Shown: positions 1-64,000 of the stretch, piece by piece
How positions within the stretch are numbered: position 1 is the stretch's first letter
Layout of the letters: every line of letters starts with the position of its first letter
Program-made: the position numbers and the translations under genes
The notes under the pieces: generated by a model
Databases searched by the model: none
What the model was told of the DNA's origin: nothing
The model's input: the letters and a program-made list of their open reading frames with translations, nothing else
Assembly (NCBI GenBank): GCA_964016885.1
Contig: OZ024743.1
Span: forward strand, 376,092,001 to 376,156,000
Reading direction: 5' to 3'
DNA length: 64,000 nt
DNA from: Eledone cirrhosa
Lineage: Eukaryota

Positions 1-422
1 GGTTTCTGGGATTATCGTTATAGTTTTGCTGGGGGTATGTTGGACGTTTTGTTACTTTTTTTGTTATTTGTTGTGCATGTGGTGTGTGAGTTTTAGTTTG
101 TTTTAAAAATGGGTTACCTGTATGTTGTTCATTTTTGAAGTCCATTTCGTAGTTGTTGAACCAGGTGGCGTTTTTTTCCCATCGCTGGAGGGATGTGAGT
201 TCTTCATCCTCACAGTTTTCTTTCCAAAGTTTTAGGTTTTTTTTTTGTAGAGTAGGCCTTCAGAGTGCTTTGAGATGTCTGTGTCCATCTGTTGGTCGAG
301 TGACTTGAATTTTCTTCGTTGGAGTTGGCTCTTAATCGCAACAGTTCTATTTCTGTTTTAAATTTTTCCAATGCCATCTTTTCCCTAAGTCTTTGTTGGT
401 TCACGTGACAGCCAAATTTCAT
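1..422 (-). pseudogene. Frameshifted helical/coiled-coil-like ORF fragment, probably the upstream ORF of a Penelope-like element (runs off window start)
   Basis: Manual minus-strand translation across two frameshifts gives KFKTEIELLRLRANSNEE..LDQQMDTDISKHSEGLLY..LKLWKENCEDEELTSLQRWEKNATWFNNYEMDFKNEQHTGNPFLKQ, then an N/T/P/Q-rich tract. It is abutted at its 5' side by an inverted hammerhead-bearing repeat (480-880), as at the other truncated PLEs here. Confidence 0.45.
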
Positions 423-479: not shown

Positions 480-873
480 TCAAACACTCATATATGAAAA
501 AACAACATGTGACAACCCCCCCTCTCTTATTTGAAGAACTATTGTAACGCGAACTGGCGCGAAATTTATTATAATTATTGACAAACCAATCAAATTACTT
601 CTCGAAAAACCTGGTTTTCGAGCCACTTTTTCCATATAAAACAAGTAACATTTAGAGACCAACCAGATGTGAGAAAAACCACAGACCCTCCATCTCAACT
701 CACCTTTTGAAAAGCAGAAGAACTGCGAAACCGGTAAAGGAACCAAATAAATATATATATATTTAAAAAAAAAATAAGACTTCAGTTGCATTTTCGATTT
801 CATCCCTTTTTCTTTATACTTCTACTCGTGTAGGACACCTCGGTTATTTTTCATTTTGTAAAAAAAACCTCAC

Positions 874-2388: not shown

Positions 2389-3209
2389 TCATTTTTTCGT
2401 GTTCAGTAGTGGTTTACATTTTTCAATGAAGAATTCTTCTTTATATCTGCGGAAATGTTCGTTATCCGACCATATCTTGAAGAAAGGGAAGGTTGTGAAT
2501 TTTCCCTTCCCGCATGATGCAAAGTGTGCGTTACATGTGGTATTTCTGACTGTGGGGTCTTTAATCTGTTGTTTATGTACCCAGACTCTATCATGTAATC
2601 CCGTTCCGGTTTCCCCAATGTAATACTCTTTACACTGTGGACATGTTGCGCAATATATTAGGTTTTTCGTTTTGCAGTTCATGTTAGCATTGACCTTGAA
2701 ATTATCATGGTTTTTGAATGACAACTGTTTGCCCTCTTCGATGAGTTCACAGGTTCCACATCTAGGGTCCCCGCATTTCGTCACTTGCATTGATTCCATG
2801 TTGGTCGTAAATTTTGCCTTGGTAATTAGTTTTTTAAGGTTGGGTGCTTGGCGTCTGCTATAAATTATCTGTGTGTTTTTTAAGAGTGCATTCATTTTGG
2901 TAGATTGCTGTAGAATCGGGAGATACTGCTTAGCAGTTTTCACAATGTTGATGTTCCCTGGGTTGTGAGTGATGACAAAAGAGATAGCAGGGTTTTCTTT
3001 TTTATGTTGTGGGTTTGGTTTTCTCAGTGTTGTTATTGGGATGTTCTTAGCCTTGGAGATGGCTGCGTTGATGAGTTTCATCGGGTATTCTTGTTTTTTA
3101 AGGAATTTTTTCAGGTCACATAATCTTTTTTCTTGTAGTACGGGGTGTGTTGCTATAGTGCAGATGCGCCTTGCCATGTTGAAGAGAATGTTCCTTTTCG
3201 TATGTGAGG
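2389..3209 (-). mobile_element. 5'-truncated Penelope-like element (Neptune-like): RT thumb + Cys linker + GIY-YIG endonuclease
   Basis: ARRICTI..., RRQAPNLKKLITKAKF, KCGDPRCGTC, NLIYCATCPQCKEYYIGETG, HKQQI, FFIEKCKPLLN*; homologous by eye to the C-terminus of 4668-6956. Confidence 0.9.
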
Positions 3210-3584
3210 GGTATATATATGTATATGTATGTATGTATATGTGTATGTATGTGTGTATATATGTGTATATATATATATATACCCATGTGGAGGTATGTGT
3301 ACATATTCGTGTGTGTACGTATGTGTATATGTGTTTTTATATGTGTCTCTATATGTTTTTGTGTATGTATTTGTACAGGGGTGTGTGATTGATGGTGTGT
3401 GCCTATATATTCCTACATATGCCCGTGTGTGTACATATATGCACACATATATATGTGTGTGTTGAACAAAGGACTAACTTTGGGATGGACGTAGAAAGAT
3501 TCTTCAGGAAAAAAAGAAAAAAATAATTATTCACAAGCTTGACAGGTGCGATTTGCCTGTGACCATTCTCAACACAAAAGCAAT

Positions 3585-4358: not shown

Positions 4359-4359
4359 A

Positions 4360-4710
4360 AATCCACCCAGGCCACTTGAAATCACAACAGAACTTACCCA
4401 CAACCACACCAGACATCACCCTCAATCCAACAAAAGACAACCCCCCAGCCTCAACACTCTGTACCACAGAAATAACGCACCCAGACCACATGAACCAACA
4501 ACAGAACCCTTGCTCATCAACAACCACAACACATACCACCCCCACCATCACATTCACCCTCATGAAACAACAAGCTACAGACCCACACGCAACAGACCAA
4601 CAAAATATAATCACACACAAAACTACATTCCTTTTTTAGGGAAAAGCCTGAAATACCAGGATACTCGATGGCCCCCCCCCCCCCCCCCCCTCAGGAGAAA
4701 CCAAAAATAA
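4360..4710 (+). CDS. 3' part of an upstream ORF of the PLE (H/N/P/T-rich, ends ...[28 protein letters not shown]), overlapping the RT ORF
   Basis: The frame of track ORF 4510..4710 stays open from 4360 (element boundary) to 4710; it contains T TTT TTA at 4632-4638 in the phase needed to slip -1 into the RT frame. A/C-rich DNA is stop-poor, so openness alone is weak evidence. Confidence 0.5.
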
Positions 4711-6956
4711 TCAACCTCTCAAAGACACCTCTAACCAACACACAAATCAACATTTTAAGTAAGGGCCTGAAATTTACACCTACACCACGTAAACCAAACT
4801 TCCCCGAAATGAAGGATGACATCATGGAATACTGCCGAAAGCTGCGACTAACGGAATTCTTCCACAACGACACCAACACTGAAGACGAATCACTGGTTAG
4901 AAATAAAAGCAATTTCTGCCCACAAAAGGGAAGAAATAAAGCACTGGACACGTACTGCGAACACATCACCAACTTTCCCTATGAAAAAATTACAAATAAA
5001 CACACGAAATCAAACCTATCTACACACGAATGGGAAGAATTATTCACACTTAGAAACAACCCTGAGATAACTATCAAAGAAGCCGATAAAGGCAGTACTG
5101 TTGTGATTATGAATACGGACTACTATAGGACCCTCGCACTTAACATTTTAGAAAACAACACATACTATGAAAAAACAGAAAACTACAAACACACCAAAAC
5201 AATGGGGAACCTTTTGACCTTACTGAATAAATACCGCAACAGCTTAACCACAAAAGAGTTTAACTATATAAGCCACTTCAAATGCAATACAAGCTCTTTT
5301 TACGGCTTACCGAAACTTCACAAATGTAAACCCATAAACGATGCATGTGACACCTCAACCAACAATTACATTGAACTAACACCACCAGAAGACCTAAAAC
5401 TCAGGCCAATTATAGCAGGCCCTACATGTGAAACCCACAGACTTAGCAACTTTCTGGACATCCTACTGAAACCCTTTCTACAACATATACAGAGCTACAT
5501 ACGAGATGACCTTGACATGCTGAAACACCTCCCTAAAACAGTAAGTGCAAATACAATTCTTGTCTCCTTTGACGTAATAAACCTCTACACAAACATACCT
5601 CACAACTATGGAATAACAGCAGTCCAATACTGGCTTAACACACACCCATCAGAAACACCGACACGCATCAACACAGATTTTATCACTGACGGACTCCGCT
5701 TTATCCTACAAAATAACTACTTCACATTCAATGGTTCAACATACAGACAAGTATCAGGTACGGCAATGGGCACGAAAGTAGCACCCACATATGCCAACCT
5801 AGTCATGGGATTCCATGAACAACAAATATACAGTCAGTCCCTTCTCTTATTTGGAGACTCTTTCCACACACACCTCAAAGCCAATTGGAAAAGATATCTA
5901 GACGACTGCTTTATCCTATGGCAAGAAGACATGAACTCACTTACTACGTTTAAAAACATGATAAACAACATAGATAATAACATACAATTCACAATGGAAT
6001 CCAATCCTAAGGAATTAGCCTTCTTGGATATTCTCATCTCTGTAATAGACGGGAAATTAGATACAGATATATTCTATAAACCCACAGATTCCAAGCAATA
6101 CCTCTTTTTCACATCAAGTCACCCAAAACATACAAAACTTAACATTCCTTACAATTTGGCCAAACGTATATGTACCATAGTATCAGATCCACCTAAACGG
6201 GAGCAAAGACTAAAGGAACTAAAAGACACCCTTATCTTAAGAGCCTTTCCACTTGAAATAATCAACAATGGAATAGACAGGGCAAAACACCTAAATCCCC
6301 ATCAACTTAACAATCCAAAACAGAAAACCACACTCAACACCCTGCCATATGTATCCACTTTCAACCCCAGAAATACCGAAATGTTTGATCACCTACACAA
6401 AAACCTCCCCATCCTACTTAAAGATGTAAAAATGAAGTCTATTCTTGAAACACACAAGATCCTTAAAAGTAAAAGACAACCCAAATCACTTAAACGCATT
6501 CTCACTGGACCAAATATACCCAAACCAATCCTCAACCCTACAGTTACCAAATGTGGTAGAACAAACTGTGGAACGTGCCTCTACCTCACTGAAGGACAAA
6601 CATTTACATTCAAAGATGGCCAAACATTTACAGTAAAAAACAATTTCACCTGCAACTCGGAGAACTTGATTTACGCAATAACTTGCGGTGGGTGCAAACA
6701 CAACTACATAGGACAGACGGGCACCTCATTACGCAAAAGAATGACCATCCACCGCCAACAAATCCGGGACGCTAACACAAGAAAAATCCCCTTGAGCAGC
6801 CATATTGCGAACTGCGCAGGAATGACACTACCCAACTTTAAAATCTTCCCCTTCTACAAGTGCTCAGATTCGTTCACACAACAACAAAGAATAAACAAAG
6901 AAAATCTATTCCTTAACAAATTTAAACCAAAACTAAACGGGTTATCACCCCAATAG
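4668..6956 (+). CDS. Penelope-like reverse transcriptase + GIY-YIG endonuclease (762 aa, uninterrupted)
   Basis: INLSK..LSKGLKFTPTP, IKEADKGSTVVIM, FYGLPKLHK, LRPIIAG, SFDVINLYTNIPH, GTAMGTKVAPTYANL, RYLDD, FLDI, KPTDSKQYLFFTSSHP, CGRTNCGTC, NLIYAITC..C..NYIGQTG, HRQQI. Confidence 0.95.
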   Translation: MAPPPPPPQEKPKIINLSKTPLTNTQINILSKGLKFTPTPRKPNFPEMKDDIMEYCRKLRLTEFFHNDTNTEDESLVRNKSNFCPQKGRNKALDTYCEHITNFPYEKITNKHTKSNLSTHEWEELFTLRNNPEITIKEADKGSTVVIMNTDYYRTLALNILENNTYYEKTENYKHTKTMGNLLTLLNKYRNSLTTKEFNYISHFKCNTSSFYGLPKLHKCKPINDACDTSTNNYIELTPPEDLKLRPIIAGPTCETHRLSNFLDILLKPFLQHIQSYIRDDLDMLKHLPKTVSANTILVSFDVINLYTNIPHNYGITAVQYWLNTHPSETPTRINTDFITDGLRFILQNNYFTFNGSTYRQVSGTAMGTKVAPTYANLVMGFHEQQIYSQSLLLFGDSFHTHLKANWKRYLDDCFILWQEDMNSLTTFKNMINNIDNNIQFTMESNPKELAFLDILISVIDGKLDTDIFYKPTDSKQYLFFTSSHPKHTKLNIPYNLAKRICTIVSDPPKREQRLKELKDTLILRAFPLEIINNGIDRAKHLNPHQLNNPKQKTTLNTLPYVSTFNPRNTEMFDHLHKNLPILLKDVKMKSILETHKILKSKRQPKSLKRILTGPNIPKPILNPTVTKCGRTNCGTCLYLTEGQTFTFKDGQTFTVKNNFTCNSENLIYAITCGGCKHNYIGQTGTSLRKRMTIHRQQIRDANTRKIPLSSHIANCAGMTLPNFKIFPFYKCSDSFTQQQRINKENLFLNKFKPKLNGLSPQ

Positions 6957-7244
6957 AATTGTCATAAAATATAAACACACATACGCACGGAATCACTACT
7001 ATTAAAGACCAGAGACCAATTCTGTAGAATCAGGTTTATTCATTGACAGACCATGCCTTTGTGTGACCAACACATCCATGTTAAACCCTGCACGTGCACA
7101 CACATATATCTATATATATATGCGCACACAGAATTCACCACTGTCGGTTGCGGGGCCCAATCTACATGAAGAACTCAATGCGATCAGAATGACTTGTATT
7201 TTAATTTCACTGCCCCAACTTCTTATATTATGGAAAAAATATAT

Positions 7245-7442
7245 GTGTCTGTATGTATATATATATATATATATTTGAAGGCCATTTCTCTGTGTGTGGG
7301 TGTATGTATGTGTGTGTGTGTGTGTGTGAGTATGTGTGTGCATGTGGATGTATGTATTGTGTGTGCGTGTGTGTGTGTGTGTGTGTGTATGTATGTGGGT
7401 ATCTGGATGTATGCGTATGTGTATATATATATATATATATGC

Positions 7443-7473
<31 letters not shown>

Positions 7474-7594
7474 TGTGTGTATGTGTGTATAATATGTGTG
7501 TGTGTGTGTGTGTGTATGTTTGTATGTGTGTATGTATATATATATATGTGTGTGTATGTATGTGTGTATCTGGATGTATGTGTATGTATATATA

Positions 7595-7647
<53 letters not shown>

Positions 7648-7714
7648 ATGTGTATATATATGTGTGTGTGTGTATGTGTGTATGTATATGTATGTGTGTG
7701 TGTATGTATGTGTG

Positions 7715-7757
<43 letters not shown>

Positions 7758-7800
7758 GTATATGTATGTATGTGTGGATGAAGGTATGTGTGTATATATA
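7245..7800. repeat. Compound (TG)n/(TA)n microsatellite within the PLE 3' region
   Basis: Directly visible between the ORF stop and the hammerhead-bearing end. Confidence 0.9.
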
Positions 7801-8105
7801 GGTGTAAGTGCACTAAATCCTTTTCTATCACGCTCCACTCTCCTACCCATCACAGGAAGATATGTGTGTGTATATTGCTTCCACCCCCTCACTGACCAGC
7901 AGCTGGCGATTGCTAAATCTGACCTTTATAAAATAACCCACACCCCAAATAACTTCTCATTCACTACCAGAAAGGGACACAGCAGTCAACCTGTTGTTGC
8001 TACCTAGATGAAAACTGCTATGAAATCCCACAATGAATTTTATACTTGAATTTTCAAGTCTCAAATTTTAACTCTTCGTATTATTAATTTTTCTTAATAT
8101 TAATC

Positions 8106-8153
8106 AACATTTGAAAAGATGGCTTTTGCAGACCCATCGAAACCGGTCATTTT
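8106..8153 (+). ncRNA. Type I hammerhead ribozyme (U3/A8 variant) at the 3' end of the PLE
   Basis: aacat TTGAAAA gatgg-cttttgcagac-ccatc GAAA ccgg TC atttt; stem I imperfect. Confidence 0.7.
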
Positions 8154-8289
8154 TTATACCCTTTATTATTTCCTTACCTTATAAAATTATGTTTTTTCAC
8201 AAAAAAGTATTCTGTCTCTTATATATTCCATGTGCCATTACCAACCTCAATTTTCTCTATAACCTTCGTTTTGTGTAGAAAATTACACT

Positions 8290-8450
<161 letters not shown>

Positions 8451-11513: not shown

Positions 11514-11991
11514 GTAATTTGATTGGTTTGTCAATAATTATAATACATTTCGCGCCAGTTCGCGTTACAATAGTTCTTCAAATGAGAGGGGGGGGGGGGG
11601 GGGGGGGGGGGTTGTCACAGGTTGTTTTTTTCACCCCCCCCTCTTATTTGAAGAACTATTGTAACGCGAACTGGCGCGAAATATATTATAATTATTGACA
11701 AACCAATCAAATTACTTCTCGAAAAACCTGGCATTTCGAGCCACTTTTTCCATATAAAACAAGTAACATTCAGAGACCAACCAGATGTGAGAAAAACCAC
11801 AGACCCTCCATCTCAACTCACCTTTTGAAAAGCAGAAGAACTGCGAAACCGGTAAAGGAACCAAATAAATATATATATTAAAAAAAAAAATAAGACTCCA
11901 GTTGCATTTTCGATTTCATCTCCTTTTCTTTATACTTTCACTCGTGTAGGACACCTCGGTTATTTTTCATTTTGTAAAAAAAAACCCTCAC

Positions 11992-17603: not shown

Positions 17604-17834
<231 letters not shown>

Positions 17835-17863
17835 GTAAATATACATATATATATATATATATA

Positions 17864-19399
<1,536 letters not shown>

Positions 19400-19428
19400 T
19401 ATATATATATATATATATATATATTTAC

Positions 19429-19509
<81 letters not shown>

Positions 19510-19511
19510 TA

Positions 19512-19553
<42 letters not shown>

Positions 19554-24490: not shown

Positions 24491-25720
24491 TTATTAAAAT
24501 AACAGATTAAAGTTTAAGCAAAGAATCGCTGCTTTCACCCTTAACGGGATCTTCTGAAACTAACAAAGTCAATCTGTAAACGCAGAACTGGATATTTCAA
24601 AAAACGTTGCAACCGGAGGAAGACAGGAAGACGATACTTTGGTTCGTGGTAACGTTAGCTGGCAAAGAACGGGAAAAACGAATAATACGTCATTGATAGG
24701 AGCGGTGAAAAACAATTACGCGCAAAGACAGAACCACGTTTATGGTATAAAGGAGGTCGTAGACTAATGTTCTCTTAGGTGGTGCATAGAGACGTTCTCT
24801 GGCAATGAACGAAAAAACGAAGATAATAAGTCATATGTGGAGCGTGGAGAACAAGACAAAACCACGTAAATGGTATAGCAGAAGTCGTAGACTAAAATTC
24901 TAACTAGGAGACCAAATGAATATCCGCTACAGAGTTAAGAACAAAGTAAATAAATACAATACAGAAGTAATAGAAACAAATAAATACATACACGCAAACA
25001 GATACGTACATACACAAGCATACGCAAAACCTTACCAAGGTATACAAAACCACGCACATATAAATATGTGTGTGTGTGTATGCTTGTGTACAAATAAATA
25101 AATAATTATATAAACGTATATAAGTAAATAAATACGTATATAACAAGCGCACACACATACCTACATATAAATACACGAATGTTCGGAGACGTAAGTCAAC
25201 TAAAACAAGAAGTACACATATACACACACCCACCATACGTACGAACCTGCATACTCACGCAGACGCAAAACTCCCGTATACACATAGCCAAACCCTAAAT
25301 ACCAGAATATGTAAAAATTATACGCCATAACAGTCAAATATACGTACGAGAAGGTATACTTACCTTCACAAAACTTACGGGTAATATATACTTACCTATG
25401 CAAATAAGTAAAGGAATAAACAAAACATATACTTAGCTCCCACATCAAGACGTAAAATATCCACGTATAGATCGTGCTATCCGTTATGGTATAACGTGGG
25501 GCTGTAATACAGGAAAGTTTTGTGCAATTTATGTTTACAAGCCGAAATTGCCTCAGATTTTTTGTTTAAGATGTGGTCTGTGGCGTAGAGTATTTCCAGG
25601 GCCTCAGCGGCGCAGAGGTCACATGGTCTTTTATTTCCGTTATACGATCTAGCCCTAGCTAGGATCTCCCAGTGTAACTTATATTGGGTGTGGTTGTCTT
25701 TTAGACTCCAGATATAAGCT
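24490..25720 (-). mobile_element. PLE 3' end (GIY-YIG C-terminus + ~1-kb 3' pLTR), same family as 61296-64000
   Basis: AYIWSLKDNHTQYKLHWEILARARSY..CDLC..E..ILNKKSEAISACKHK; near-identical to 61385-62620. Confidence 0.9.
24511..24561 (-). ncRNA. Hammerhead-like motif with CAGAAGA core
   Basis: Minus strand: agttt CAGAAGA t-ccc-gttaa-ggg-t GAAA gca-gcgattctt-tgc TT aaact; same core at 61405-61455; relative with CTGAAAA at 48431-48482. Confidence 0.6.
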
Positions 25721-34649: not shown

Positions 34650-35450
34650 ATCTGTAGGGTAACCTCTCCGGATGAAATGGCTGACTAGGGAAAGGGCCTG
34701 GGACTCAAAGTCAGCTTCTCGGCTGCAGAGGCGGCGGATCCGGATGAGTTGGGAGTAGGGAATGGAGTGTTTTGTGTGTGTTGGGTGGGAGGAGGTGAAG
34801 TCGAGGTAGGAGTGGGAGTCGGTGGGTTTGAAGAAGGCGGAGGTGACGAGGGAGCGGTGGGAGGGGTCGATGGCGACGGAGATGTCAAAGAAGTGGACGT
34901 GGGTGGTGGAGATAGAGGTGGTGAAATGGAGGGAGGGGTGGAAGGAGCAGAAGAGAGTCAAGATGTTCTCGGGCAAGGGTCGTGGCTCCGATACAGTCGT
35001 CGATGTAACGACCATACTGTTCGGGTGTGGGGCCGGTGTACCGGGAAAAGATTTGGGCCTCAACATGACCAACGAAAAGGTTGGCATAGTTTGGGGCCCA
35101 TTCTTGTGCCCATGGCTACCCCCGTGATCTGTTGGTAAAACTCACTCGAGATGGAGAAGCAGTTGAGGGTGAGGACCAGCTCAGCGAGGCGTAGGAGGGT
35201 GTGGGTGGATGGGGATGGGGAGGGGCGAAGGTTGAGGTAGTGCCGGAGGGCACGTAGGCCGCCGGCGTGGGGGATGACAGTATAGAGGGACTTGATATCT
35301 AGTGTGAAGAGGAGGGGGTGTGGGTCGGGTGGGAAAGTGAGGGAGTCGAACAGGCAAAGGGCGTGGTTGGTGTCGAAGATGTGAGAGGGGAGGGTGGTGG
35401 CGAGGGGAGCGAGGATGGAGTCAAGAAAGGCGGAGATGAGTTCGGTGGGG
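34650..35450 (-). mobile_element. Frameshifted Penelope-like RT fragment, with a C-rich downstream region to ~33700
   Basis: TELISAFLDSIL, LFTLDIKSLYTVIPH, GVAMGTRMGP, acatcgacgac (YIDD) in a shifted frame, FKPTDSHSYLDFTSSHP, SIPYSQLIRIRRLCS. Confidence 0.9.
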
Positions 35451-61148: not shown

Positions 61149-63205
<2,057 letters not shown>

Positions 63206-64000
63206 AAAAGACAACCACACCCAATATAAGTTACACTGGGAGATCCTAGCTAGGGCTAGATCGTATAACGGAACTAAAAGACCATGTGACCTCTGCGCCG
63301 CTGAGGCCCTGGAAATACTCTACGCTACAGACCACATCTTAAACAAAAAATCTGAGGCAATTTCGGCTTGTAAACATAAATGGCACAAAACTTTCCTGTA
63401 TTACAGCCCCACGTTATACCCTAACGGATAGCACGATCTATACGTGGATATTTTACGTCTTGATGTGGGAGCTAAGTATATGTTTTGTTTATTCCTTTAC
63501 TTATTTGCATAGGTAAGTATATATTACCCGTATGTTTTGTGAAGGTATGTATACCTTCTCGTACGTATATTTGACTGTTATAGCGTATCATTTTTACATA
63601 TTCTGGTATTTAGGGTTTGGCTATGTGTATACAGGAGTTTTGCGTCCGCGTGAGTGTGCAGGTTCGTACGAATGGTGGGTGTGTGTATATGTGTACTTCT
63701 TGTTTTAGTTGACTTACGTCTCCGAACATTCGTGTATTTATATGTAGGTATGCGTGTGCGCTTGTTATATACGTATTTATTTACTTATATACGTTTATAT
63801 AATTATTTATTTATTTGTACACAAGCATACTCACACACATATTTATACGTGCGTGGTTTTGTATACCCATGGTAAGGTTTTGCGTATGCTTGTGTATGTA
63901 CGTATCTGTTTGCGTGTATGTATTTATTTGTTTCTATTACTTCTGTATTGTATTTATTTACTTTGTTCTTAACTCTGTAGCGGAGATTCATTTGGTCTCC
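63206..64000 (+). mobile_element. Inverted duplicate of the same element's 3' end (ORF tail + pLTR) joined at its 5' truncation
   Basis: 63206-64000 is the reverse complement of ~61813-62604 with few differences; runs off window. Confidence 0.9.

Follow-up and report, generated by a model that had tools for sequence, protein, structure and literature searches.

A probable -1 frameshift junction in two-ORF, endonuclease-bearing Penelope-like elements of Eledone cirrhosa, with a possible role for ribosome queues

A conserved -1 frameshift junction is considered to join an upstream reading frame (ORF1) to the reverse transcriptase (RT)-endonuclease frame of a two-ORF, endonuclease-bearing (EN+) Penelope-like element (PLE) of Eledone cirrhosa, with a probability of roughly 0.88 that this junction is real. 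The overlap of the two frames, its -1 phase and a slippery heptamer were found, by comparison of sequences, to be conserved across families with saturated synonymous sites. The ribosomal slip itself, and the ratio of ORF1 protein to fusion protein, we infer from this layout: on U UUU UUA at the ORF1/RT junction, ribosomes would shift one base backwards and give an ORF1-RT-endonuclease fusion, ORF1 protein alone being made in far larger amount. A pause of one ribosome at the ORF1 stop codon or at a stall motif, 10 codons past the slip codons, would then keep the following ribosome on the slippery codons during attempted translocation; that such a queue, rather than an RNA fold, is the clade-wide stimulator is regarded as an even bet.

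The F1 element and its ORF1/RT junction

The window analysed (64,000 nucleotides of contig OZ024743.1, to which all positions refer) carries at 4359..8297 (+) a young, 5'-truncated copy of a Neptune-like EN+ PLE (family F1) within (TA)n. The truncation has removed the promoter together with the start and about 309 codons of ORF1, so that no ORF1 would be made from this copy; intact F1 junctions were counted in 185 copies across the genome (3.0 Gb). In full-length F1 copies a pseudo-LTR is followed by an ATG-started ORF1 of ~420 aa, which reads through the heptamer. The 3' remnant of ORF1 is open throughout 4360..4710 (+) and overlaps the RT frame, which is closed by TAA at 4608..4610 (+), 7 codons 5' of the slippery heptamer T TTT TTA (4632..4638, +). 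Direct reading of 4630-4644 gives CCT TTT TTA GGG AAA; the heptamer codes for Phe-Leu in ORF1 and has the form X XXY YYZ, in phase inside the -1 overlap of two selected ORFs. A -1 slip at 4632-4638 enters the RT-GIY-YIG reading frame (4638..6956, +; RVT_1 above the cut-off), which is open over 4611-6956, that is, for 781 codons, or 762 counted from ATG 4668. An earlier note on this DNA had placed the heptamer, the frames, the TAA, a CCTG/CAGG hairpin and a C19 run at positions with which direct reading agrees, and its claim that a -1 slip at T TTT TTA leads into the RT/GIY-YIG frame was confirmed by the phase. Since the bare 8-mer TTTTTTAG occurs in the window at chance level (2 found, 2.07 expected), the evidence lies in position and conservation and not in the motif.

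Further along the copy were located YLDD of RT (5895-5906, +), a Zn-finger-like C-X4-C-XX-C linker of the Neptune/Nematis type (6552..6578, +) and the GIY-YIG core IYA...CxxC...YIG (6669..6713, +), the last two read in the sequence, followed by the 3' pseudo-LTR (7770..8297, +), which also stands 5' of ORF1 in full-length tandem copies. A hammerhead-like fold was assigned by pattern match to 8111..8149 (+), with UUGAAAA, which we take to be a variant of the hammerhead core. The pattern gave 3 matches in the window against 0 expected, the others, with the same core variant, lying at 707-735 (+) and 11825-11853 (+); a search of Rfam returned no hammerhead, only microsatellite noise.

The features expected of the EN+ PLE class were found as follows: RT as an RVT_1 match (Pfam) in the window copy, GIY-YIG with CCHH as IYA-CxxC-YIG and two downstream His residues read in the sequence, and pseudo-LTRs, tandem or inverted ends and 5' truncation, all present. 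Pfam GIY-YIG gave no match on the window copy and matched a related F7 copy. The C-X4-C-XX-C between RT and EN corresponds to the CX2-5CxxC-type linker motif that, in the accessible text of PMC8557442, is common to Neptune and Nematis, and F1 resembles the Neptune clade as described there in GIY-YIG with CCHH, this linker, pseudo-LTRs, (TA)n insertion and tandem/inverted structures. The term 'Neptune-like' is thus applied by motifs and not by an RT tree with named Neptune elements. Canonical EN+ PLEs are single-ORF in the same text, whereas F1 has a separate ~420-aa ORF1 with a -1 overlap, and two overlapping ORFs were found in eight families.

F1 carries an expanded poly-C run whose length varies among copies. 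It is C19 in the window (4672..4690, +), against C7 in the modal G+C7+T allele; these 12 extra C leave the window copy in -1 phase by luck. In the 30 copies closest to that of the window, -1, fused and +1 phases were random (11/8/11), whereas of the F1 copies selected by ORF1, 19/30 carry G+C7+T and 20/30 are in -1. A sample in genome order, comprising 100 of 161 matches, hand-counted and with one chance match dropped (the pattern left out C runs >17), had the modal length in 55/99 and -1/fused/+1 phases in 63/15/21. Deep short-read contigs span the heptamer but break at the C run, which the earlier note had proposed to check in raw reads. The 15/99 fused and 21/99 +1 copies are read as products of poly-C slippage, as are the open frames >1100 aa present in 6/150 matches; some fused copies could be active. 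This slippage yields ORF1-RT fusions that are intact and in frame, 1140-1180 aa long, as observed in L012 (574 onward), L033 and L038, of which L038 combines a mutated heptamer with a fused frame. Alleles without G before the C run expand most.

Other remnants were noted in the window. Positions 2392-3225 (-) hold a 5'-truncated copy of F7, a family that shares about 39% identity with F1 over the EN half; the same heptamer in -1 phase is present in full-length F7, and its lysine run begins at codon +9. An F2 ORF1 fragment at 1-400 (-), cut off by the window start, is accompanied by an inverted pseudo-LTR, and 34650-35446 (-) holds a decayed RT fragment with frameshifts, 32-37% identical to F1. 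Long, almost perfect inverted repeats (about 650 nt) at 61826-63985, 17752-19553 and 25061-25702 are possibly inverted pseudo-LTRs or another element.

Conservation in other families, homologues and metagenome loci

The heptamer T TTT TTA, in ORF1 phase and with RT in -1, was found in F1, F1b, F2, F3, F4, F5, F6 and F7 of the Eledone cirrhosa genome, the evidence for F6 being one decayed copy. RT identity among F1-F5 is 49-71% over the first 300 RT codons, with pS of 0.60-0.80, near saturation. The long poly-C is absent from F1b, F2, F3, F4, F5, F6 and F7; for F2, a fused frame occurred in 0/150 matches, the longest being 767 aa. The ORF1 core has dN/dS of about 0.2 where measurable (finite dS), and the purifying selection on the upstream ORF for which the earlier note had proposed a test is shown by these sequences.

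ORF1 in full-length copies (~420 aa) consists of a long helical core and a low-complexity tail. The first 249 residues were modelled by AlphaFold as all-helical (pLDDT 90), with helices of up to about 45 residues. Pfam gave scattered single matches only on 91 ORF1 members, and Foldseek gave no match of ORF1 at E <=0.001 against PDB and BFVD. A structural or RNA-packaging role, as for other ORF1/Gag proteins, may be inferred. The gag-pol-like two-ORF expression suggested in the earlier note was upheld in its -1 layout by all comparative tests run, but not in its likeness to Gag, for which no Pfam or fold match was obtained.

A profile search with the ORF1 core returned 797 clusters. Among the best 150 of these, with lengths of 88-609 aa, none was fused to RT. 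Named homologues are few (Mytilus and one Solemya-associated record); P0162, whose annotation gives a bacterium living as gill symbiont in a bivalve, is likely host contamination. Further searches were less productive: a word-index protein search, which is a weak search, gave one homologue of near length and none longer, the ESM Atlas gave no match, no relatives were found in viral contigs, and a second RT-motif pattern had 0 matches. FL stands in the last 45 residues of 67/79 proteins of >=330 aa, compared with 4, 5 and 11 in control windows. A residue without any T-ending codon precedes FL in 0/83 proteins, against a background of 20% (p 7e-9), and a T-ending codon is required at this place by T TTT TTR.

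Metagenome loci were collected through an RT query that took no account of the junction. Of 80 loci kept, 68 were scored, 8 being without the RT N-terminus and 4 too short. An upstream ORF1 profile match was present in 17/68, with T TTT TT[AG] in 14, T TTA AAC in 1 and T TTT CNA in 2, all in -1; the heptamer is thereby canonical at 15/17, and its conservation in relatives, with its phase, answers the test that the earlier note had proposed. In several loci the RT frame opens just 0-3 codons 5' of the heptamer, which pins the shift to the heptamer. Another 24/68, more distant, had no ORF1 profile match and an RT frame open for >=100 codons upstream; the two-ORF layout therefore marks one clade and not all EN+ PLEs.

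Non-canonical T TTT CNN was seen at the same -1 position in L138, L141, L178, L210 and L184-L187, these sites possibly being single-tRNA slips; FR/FF variants in P0072, P0076 and P0144 match them, and the 10-codon spacing discussed below is kept in L138 and L141 (T TTT CTA/CAA). L196 and L199 are distant two-ORF elements with an ORF1 of about 550 aa, no profile match and the heptamer present; the stop lies 2 codons past it, L199 has a strong hairpin, and the two are apparently a structure-stimulated version of the junction.

Downstream fold and stop spacing

A stem-loop or pseudoknot 5-9 nt downstream is the usual accompaniment of -1 frameshifting; no conserved stem-loop after the heptamer was found by secondary-structure folding with a program that does not treat pseudoknots. 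The 4-bp hairpin CCTG/CAGG at 4647..4660 (+), which the earlier note had pointed out, is present but weak (-4.9 kcal/mol, centroid) and unconserved, in a region of F1 that is less stably folded than its shuffled versions (z +1.4 to +1.8); it was rejected as stimulator and is probably incidental. Over 28 junctions, 24 had z above -2 and 4 had z of -2 or lower, with almost no downstream fold in F3, F4 and L152. A conserved downstream fold is thus shown to be absent from the junction.

What recurs instead is a distance. The ORF1 stop lies exactly 10 codons past the slip codon in 25/79 homologues, and tails of <10 codons occur in 0/79; from the stop rate at later codons, 3% would be expected to have a tail of 10 and 51% a shorter one. 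Four proteins called truncated (P0002, P0067, P0139 and P0055, with tails of 15, 21, 6 and 25) were dropped before this count. Short tails of 2-4 codons occur in 4/28 DNA junctions (L142, L146, L196 and L199), two of these being distant elements and one having a strong hairpin. On a quick tree, on which the labels are clustered, 10-aa tails are spread by 12 changes, at least 6 of them forced by strong branches, and the tails have no common sequence. In L145 the heptamer type has changed to T TTA AAC and the tail is still 10 codons; in F3 and F4 the stop stands at +11.

Longer tails were inspected for stall motifs (Pro-Pro/Gly/Asp occupying E-P, or Arg-X-Lys occupying E-P-A), the set being that of the disome motifs which the accessible text of PMC9846516 quotes from Han 2020. 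With the A site at +11, such motifs were present in 10/51 longer tails (null 1.2, p 2e-4); they were also seen at +12 (6) and +6 (5). A broader set including GGG (19/51) was post hoc and was dropped for the literature-defined one. F5 and F7 have K-E-K at the +11 position, and 27/79 protein tails have neither stop nor stall motif. In F1, F1b and F2, codon +11 is TGG, and this W clade is nested among stop-bearing relatives: the codon at 4669..4671 (+), the Trp that ends D-T-R-W in F1, is the ORF1 stop in sister lineages. Pro-Pro in F1 is found at +12/13 and not at +11. For F1, the TGG of the conserved D-T-R-W is a candidate for the pause.

A gap of 10 codons is the minimal spacing of collided ribosomes in yeast (10.1101/2023.02.01.526718), and in engineered E. 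coli reporters -1 shifting via collision peaks at a 9-codon spacer before the stop, according to the accessible text of Smith 2019 (PMC6815119). It is this agreement with the eukaryotic collision spacing that suggests queue-stimulated frameshifting.

Given frameshifting, a shift without a queue has a little less than an even chance. Here the heptamer alone, perhaps aided by the slow decoding of UUA reported for HIV-1, or lineage-specific folds, would suffice, and the 10-codon tail would reflect a constraint on protein or nucleotides, for instance T-R-R at +31 to +33 or a hydrophobic residue in the RT frame. Codon +11 is TAA, TAG or TGG in 14/28 junctions, the RT-frame residue being V, L, I or M in all of these, and T-R-R at +31 to +33 nt might mark another constraint; the 4/28 junctions that fold at z -2 or lower and the short-tail cases also fit a queue-free shift. 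Against it, V, L, I or M occupies the RT-frame position in none of the other 14 junctions, so that hydrophobicity alone is insufficient; the spacing is fixed to the heptamer and not to the RT motifs, the distance to which varies in the stop cases (48-75 nt); the 10-aa tails lack a common sequence; and other clades have stall motifs at the same position.

Other origins of the phase change, known systems and meaning

Splicing is a very improbable source of the RT product. TTTTTTAG followed by G would serve as 3' splice acceptor and RT would be made from spliced RNA; the sequence in F1 is good and acceptor-like, introns are possible in PLEs according to the accessible text of PMC8557442, and G follows the heptamer, preserving AG, in 20/23 TTA junctions. 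AG is, however, missing in 8/28 junctions, including F5 of the same genome (T TTT TTA ACG), and also in L145, and the residue after FL in 21/83 ORF1 proteins has no codon starting with G or AG, as AG would demand. Nor does an acceptor require a fixed ORF1 phase or a stop 10 codons on. Genomic copies joined at AG numbered 0 against 185 intact (a weak argument, as PLEs retain introns). Contigs from four runs of unrecorded kind, with DNA-like depth and from at most 2 samples, had 0/7 of the listed joints at AG 4638-4639, a result that carries no information on splicing.

Still less probable is an independent start of the RT ORF at ATG 4668, whether through leaky scanning or through reinitiation after ORF1. 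In F1 and F1b this ATG is in frame and 5' of the conserved N-terminal part of RT, but it arises as a by-product of CGA TGG in the ORF1 frame; F2 has GTG in its place, with the first in-frame Met only past KGLKF and EADKG, and 18/28 junctions have no Met from the heptamer to KGLKF. On a par with it stands a frame restored in RNA by polymerase slippage on T6 (an added U). The same phase change would be expected, and T7 was seen in one shallow contig; the run is just six T, however, L145 with T TTA AAC has no long T run, and the constraints on codon phase and stop spacing point to translation. The least probable is a single-ORF element, whose -1 phase would be an artefact either of the poly-C length or of faulty assembly: the random phases of the long-run copies (11/8/11 of 30) and the fused frames of 1140-1180 aa agree with it, but the modal F1 allele is -1, no fused protein occurs among the best 150 of 797 homologue clusters, and the poly-C-free families, being strictly two-ORF, largely refute it. 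A single continuous ORF in other copies, which the earlier note had named as grounds for abandoning the frameshift, is therefore not the general state, and its alternatives of a splice acceptor and of ATG 4668 did not hold in general. As general explanations splicing, ATG 4668, the single ORF and polymerase slippage all fail; F1 by itself might still give a minor product by splicing or from the ATG.

The -1 frameshift has parallels. The HIV-1 gag-pol slip site is U UUU UUA followed by GGGAA, with a structural-type ORF fused to RT. F1 shares the heptamer with GGGAA and the probable joining of a structural-type ORF to RT; it differs in having no strong downstream stem-loop, in that GGGAA is unconserved, and in that its ORF1 has no match to a Gag fold or zinc knuckle. 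As in the E. coli collision reporters (accessible text of PMC6815119), a slippery heptad precedes a stop at a set distance in codons, and no RNA structure is needed; those reporters are engineered and bacterial, with 9 codons, whereas the PLE spacing is natural, eukaryotic and conserved, with 10. In SARS-CoV-2, as far as the accessible text of Bhatt 2021 (PMC8168617) describes it, the 0-frame stop lies 5 codons on, inside the pseudoknot, with a proposed role in refolding; the PLE stop is one ribosome away and there is no conserved structure.

Among PLEs, the EN-deficient Athena/Terminon and Coprina elements, as treated in the accessible text of PMC6431247, have an upstream ORF with long coiled-coil-like helices, as does F1; the likeness of Athena ORF1 to that of F1 is one of helices, and F1-type elements, unlike these, carry an endonuclease and sit in (TA)n genome-wide. 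The earlier note had held EN+ PLEs to be single-ORF, which stands as the canonical description, but an upstream ORF in EN+ PLEs is not entirely without precedent. In the accessible text of Craig 2021 (PMC8557442), the legend of Fig. 1 has an ORF1 separable by a frameshift with a pseudoknot, the clade being unnamed in the text. At the F1 junction, by contrast with this legend, no conserved fold or pseudoknot is evident (folding without pseudoknots). Elsewhere in the literature a short separate ORF1 is given for a killifish Neptune, and esterases are mentioned for Neptune-like PLEs. Full-text literature searches yielded no paper on a Neptune/Penelope slippery site or on frameshifting in GIY-YIG PLEs, and neither the 10-codon rule, the collision reading nor stop spacing in PLEs. 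The frameshift is probably of a known kind, extended to EN+ PLEs or already noted in them, and that of Neptune elements may be partly in print; the searches suggest that the 10-codon spacing rule and the collision reading are the new part.

The single-ORF picture is corrected for a large clade of EN+ PLEs, and an unannotated ORF1 family (797 clusters) is supplied, without which no attempt to reconstitute these elements would be complete. The junctions are natural, conserved -1 sites free of structure, with a spacing of stop or stall motif equal to that of the eukaryotic disome. With this set of junctions it becomes directly testable whether collisions serve as a programmed recoding signal in cells and mobile elements, and how mRNAs of this kind escape collision surveillance. 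In the literature searched, accounts of collision-stimulated shifting were confined to engineered bacterial reporters and mutant herpes TK mRNA; if the queue reading is true, these elements would be a natural eukaryotic case of programmed collision-stimulated -1 frameshifting, and ribosome load, not an RNA fold, would govern how much RT-endonuclease they make.
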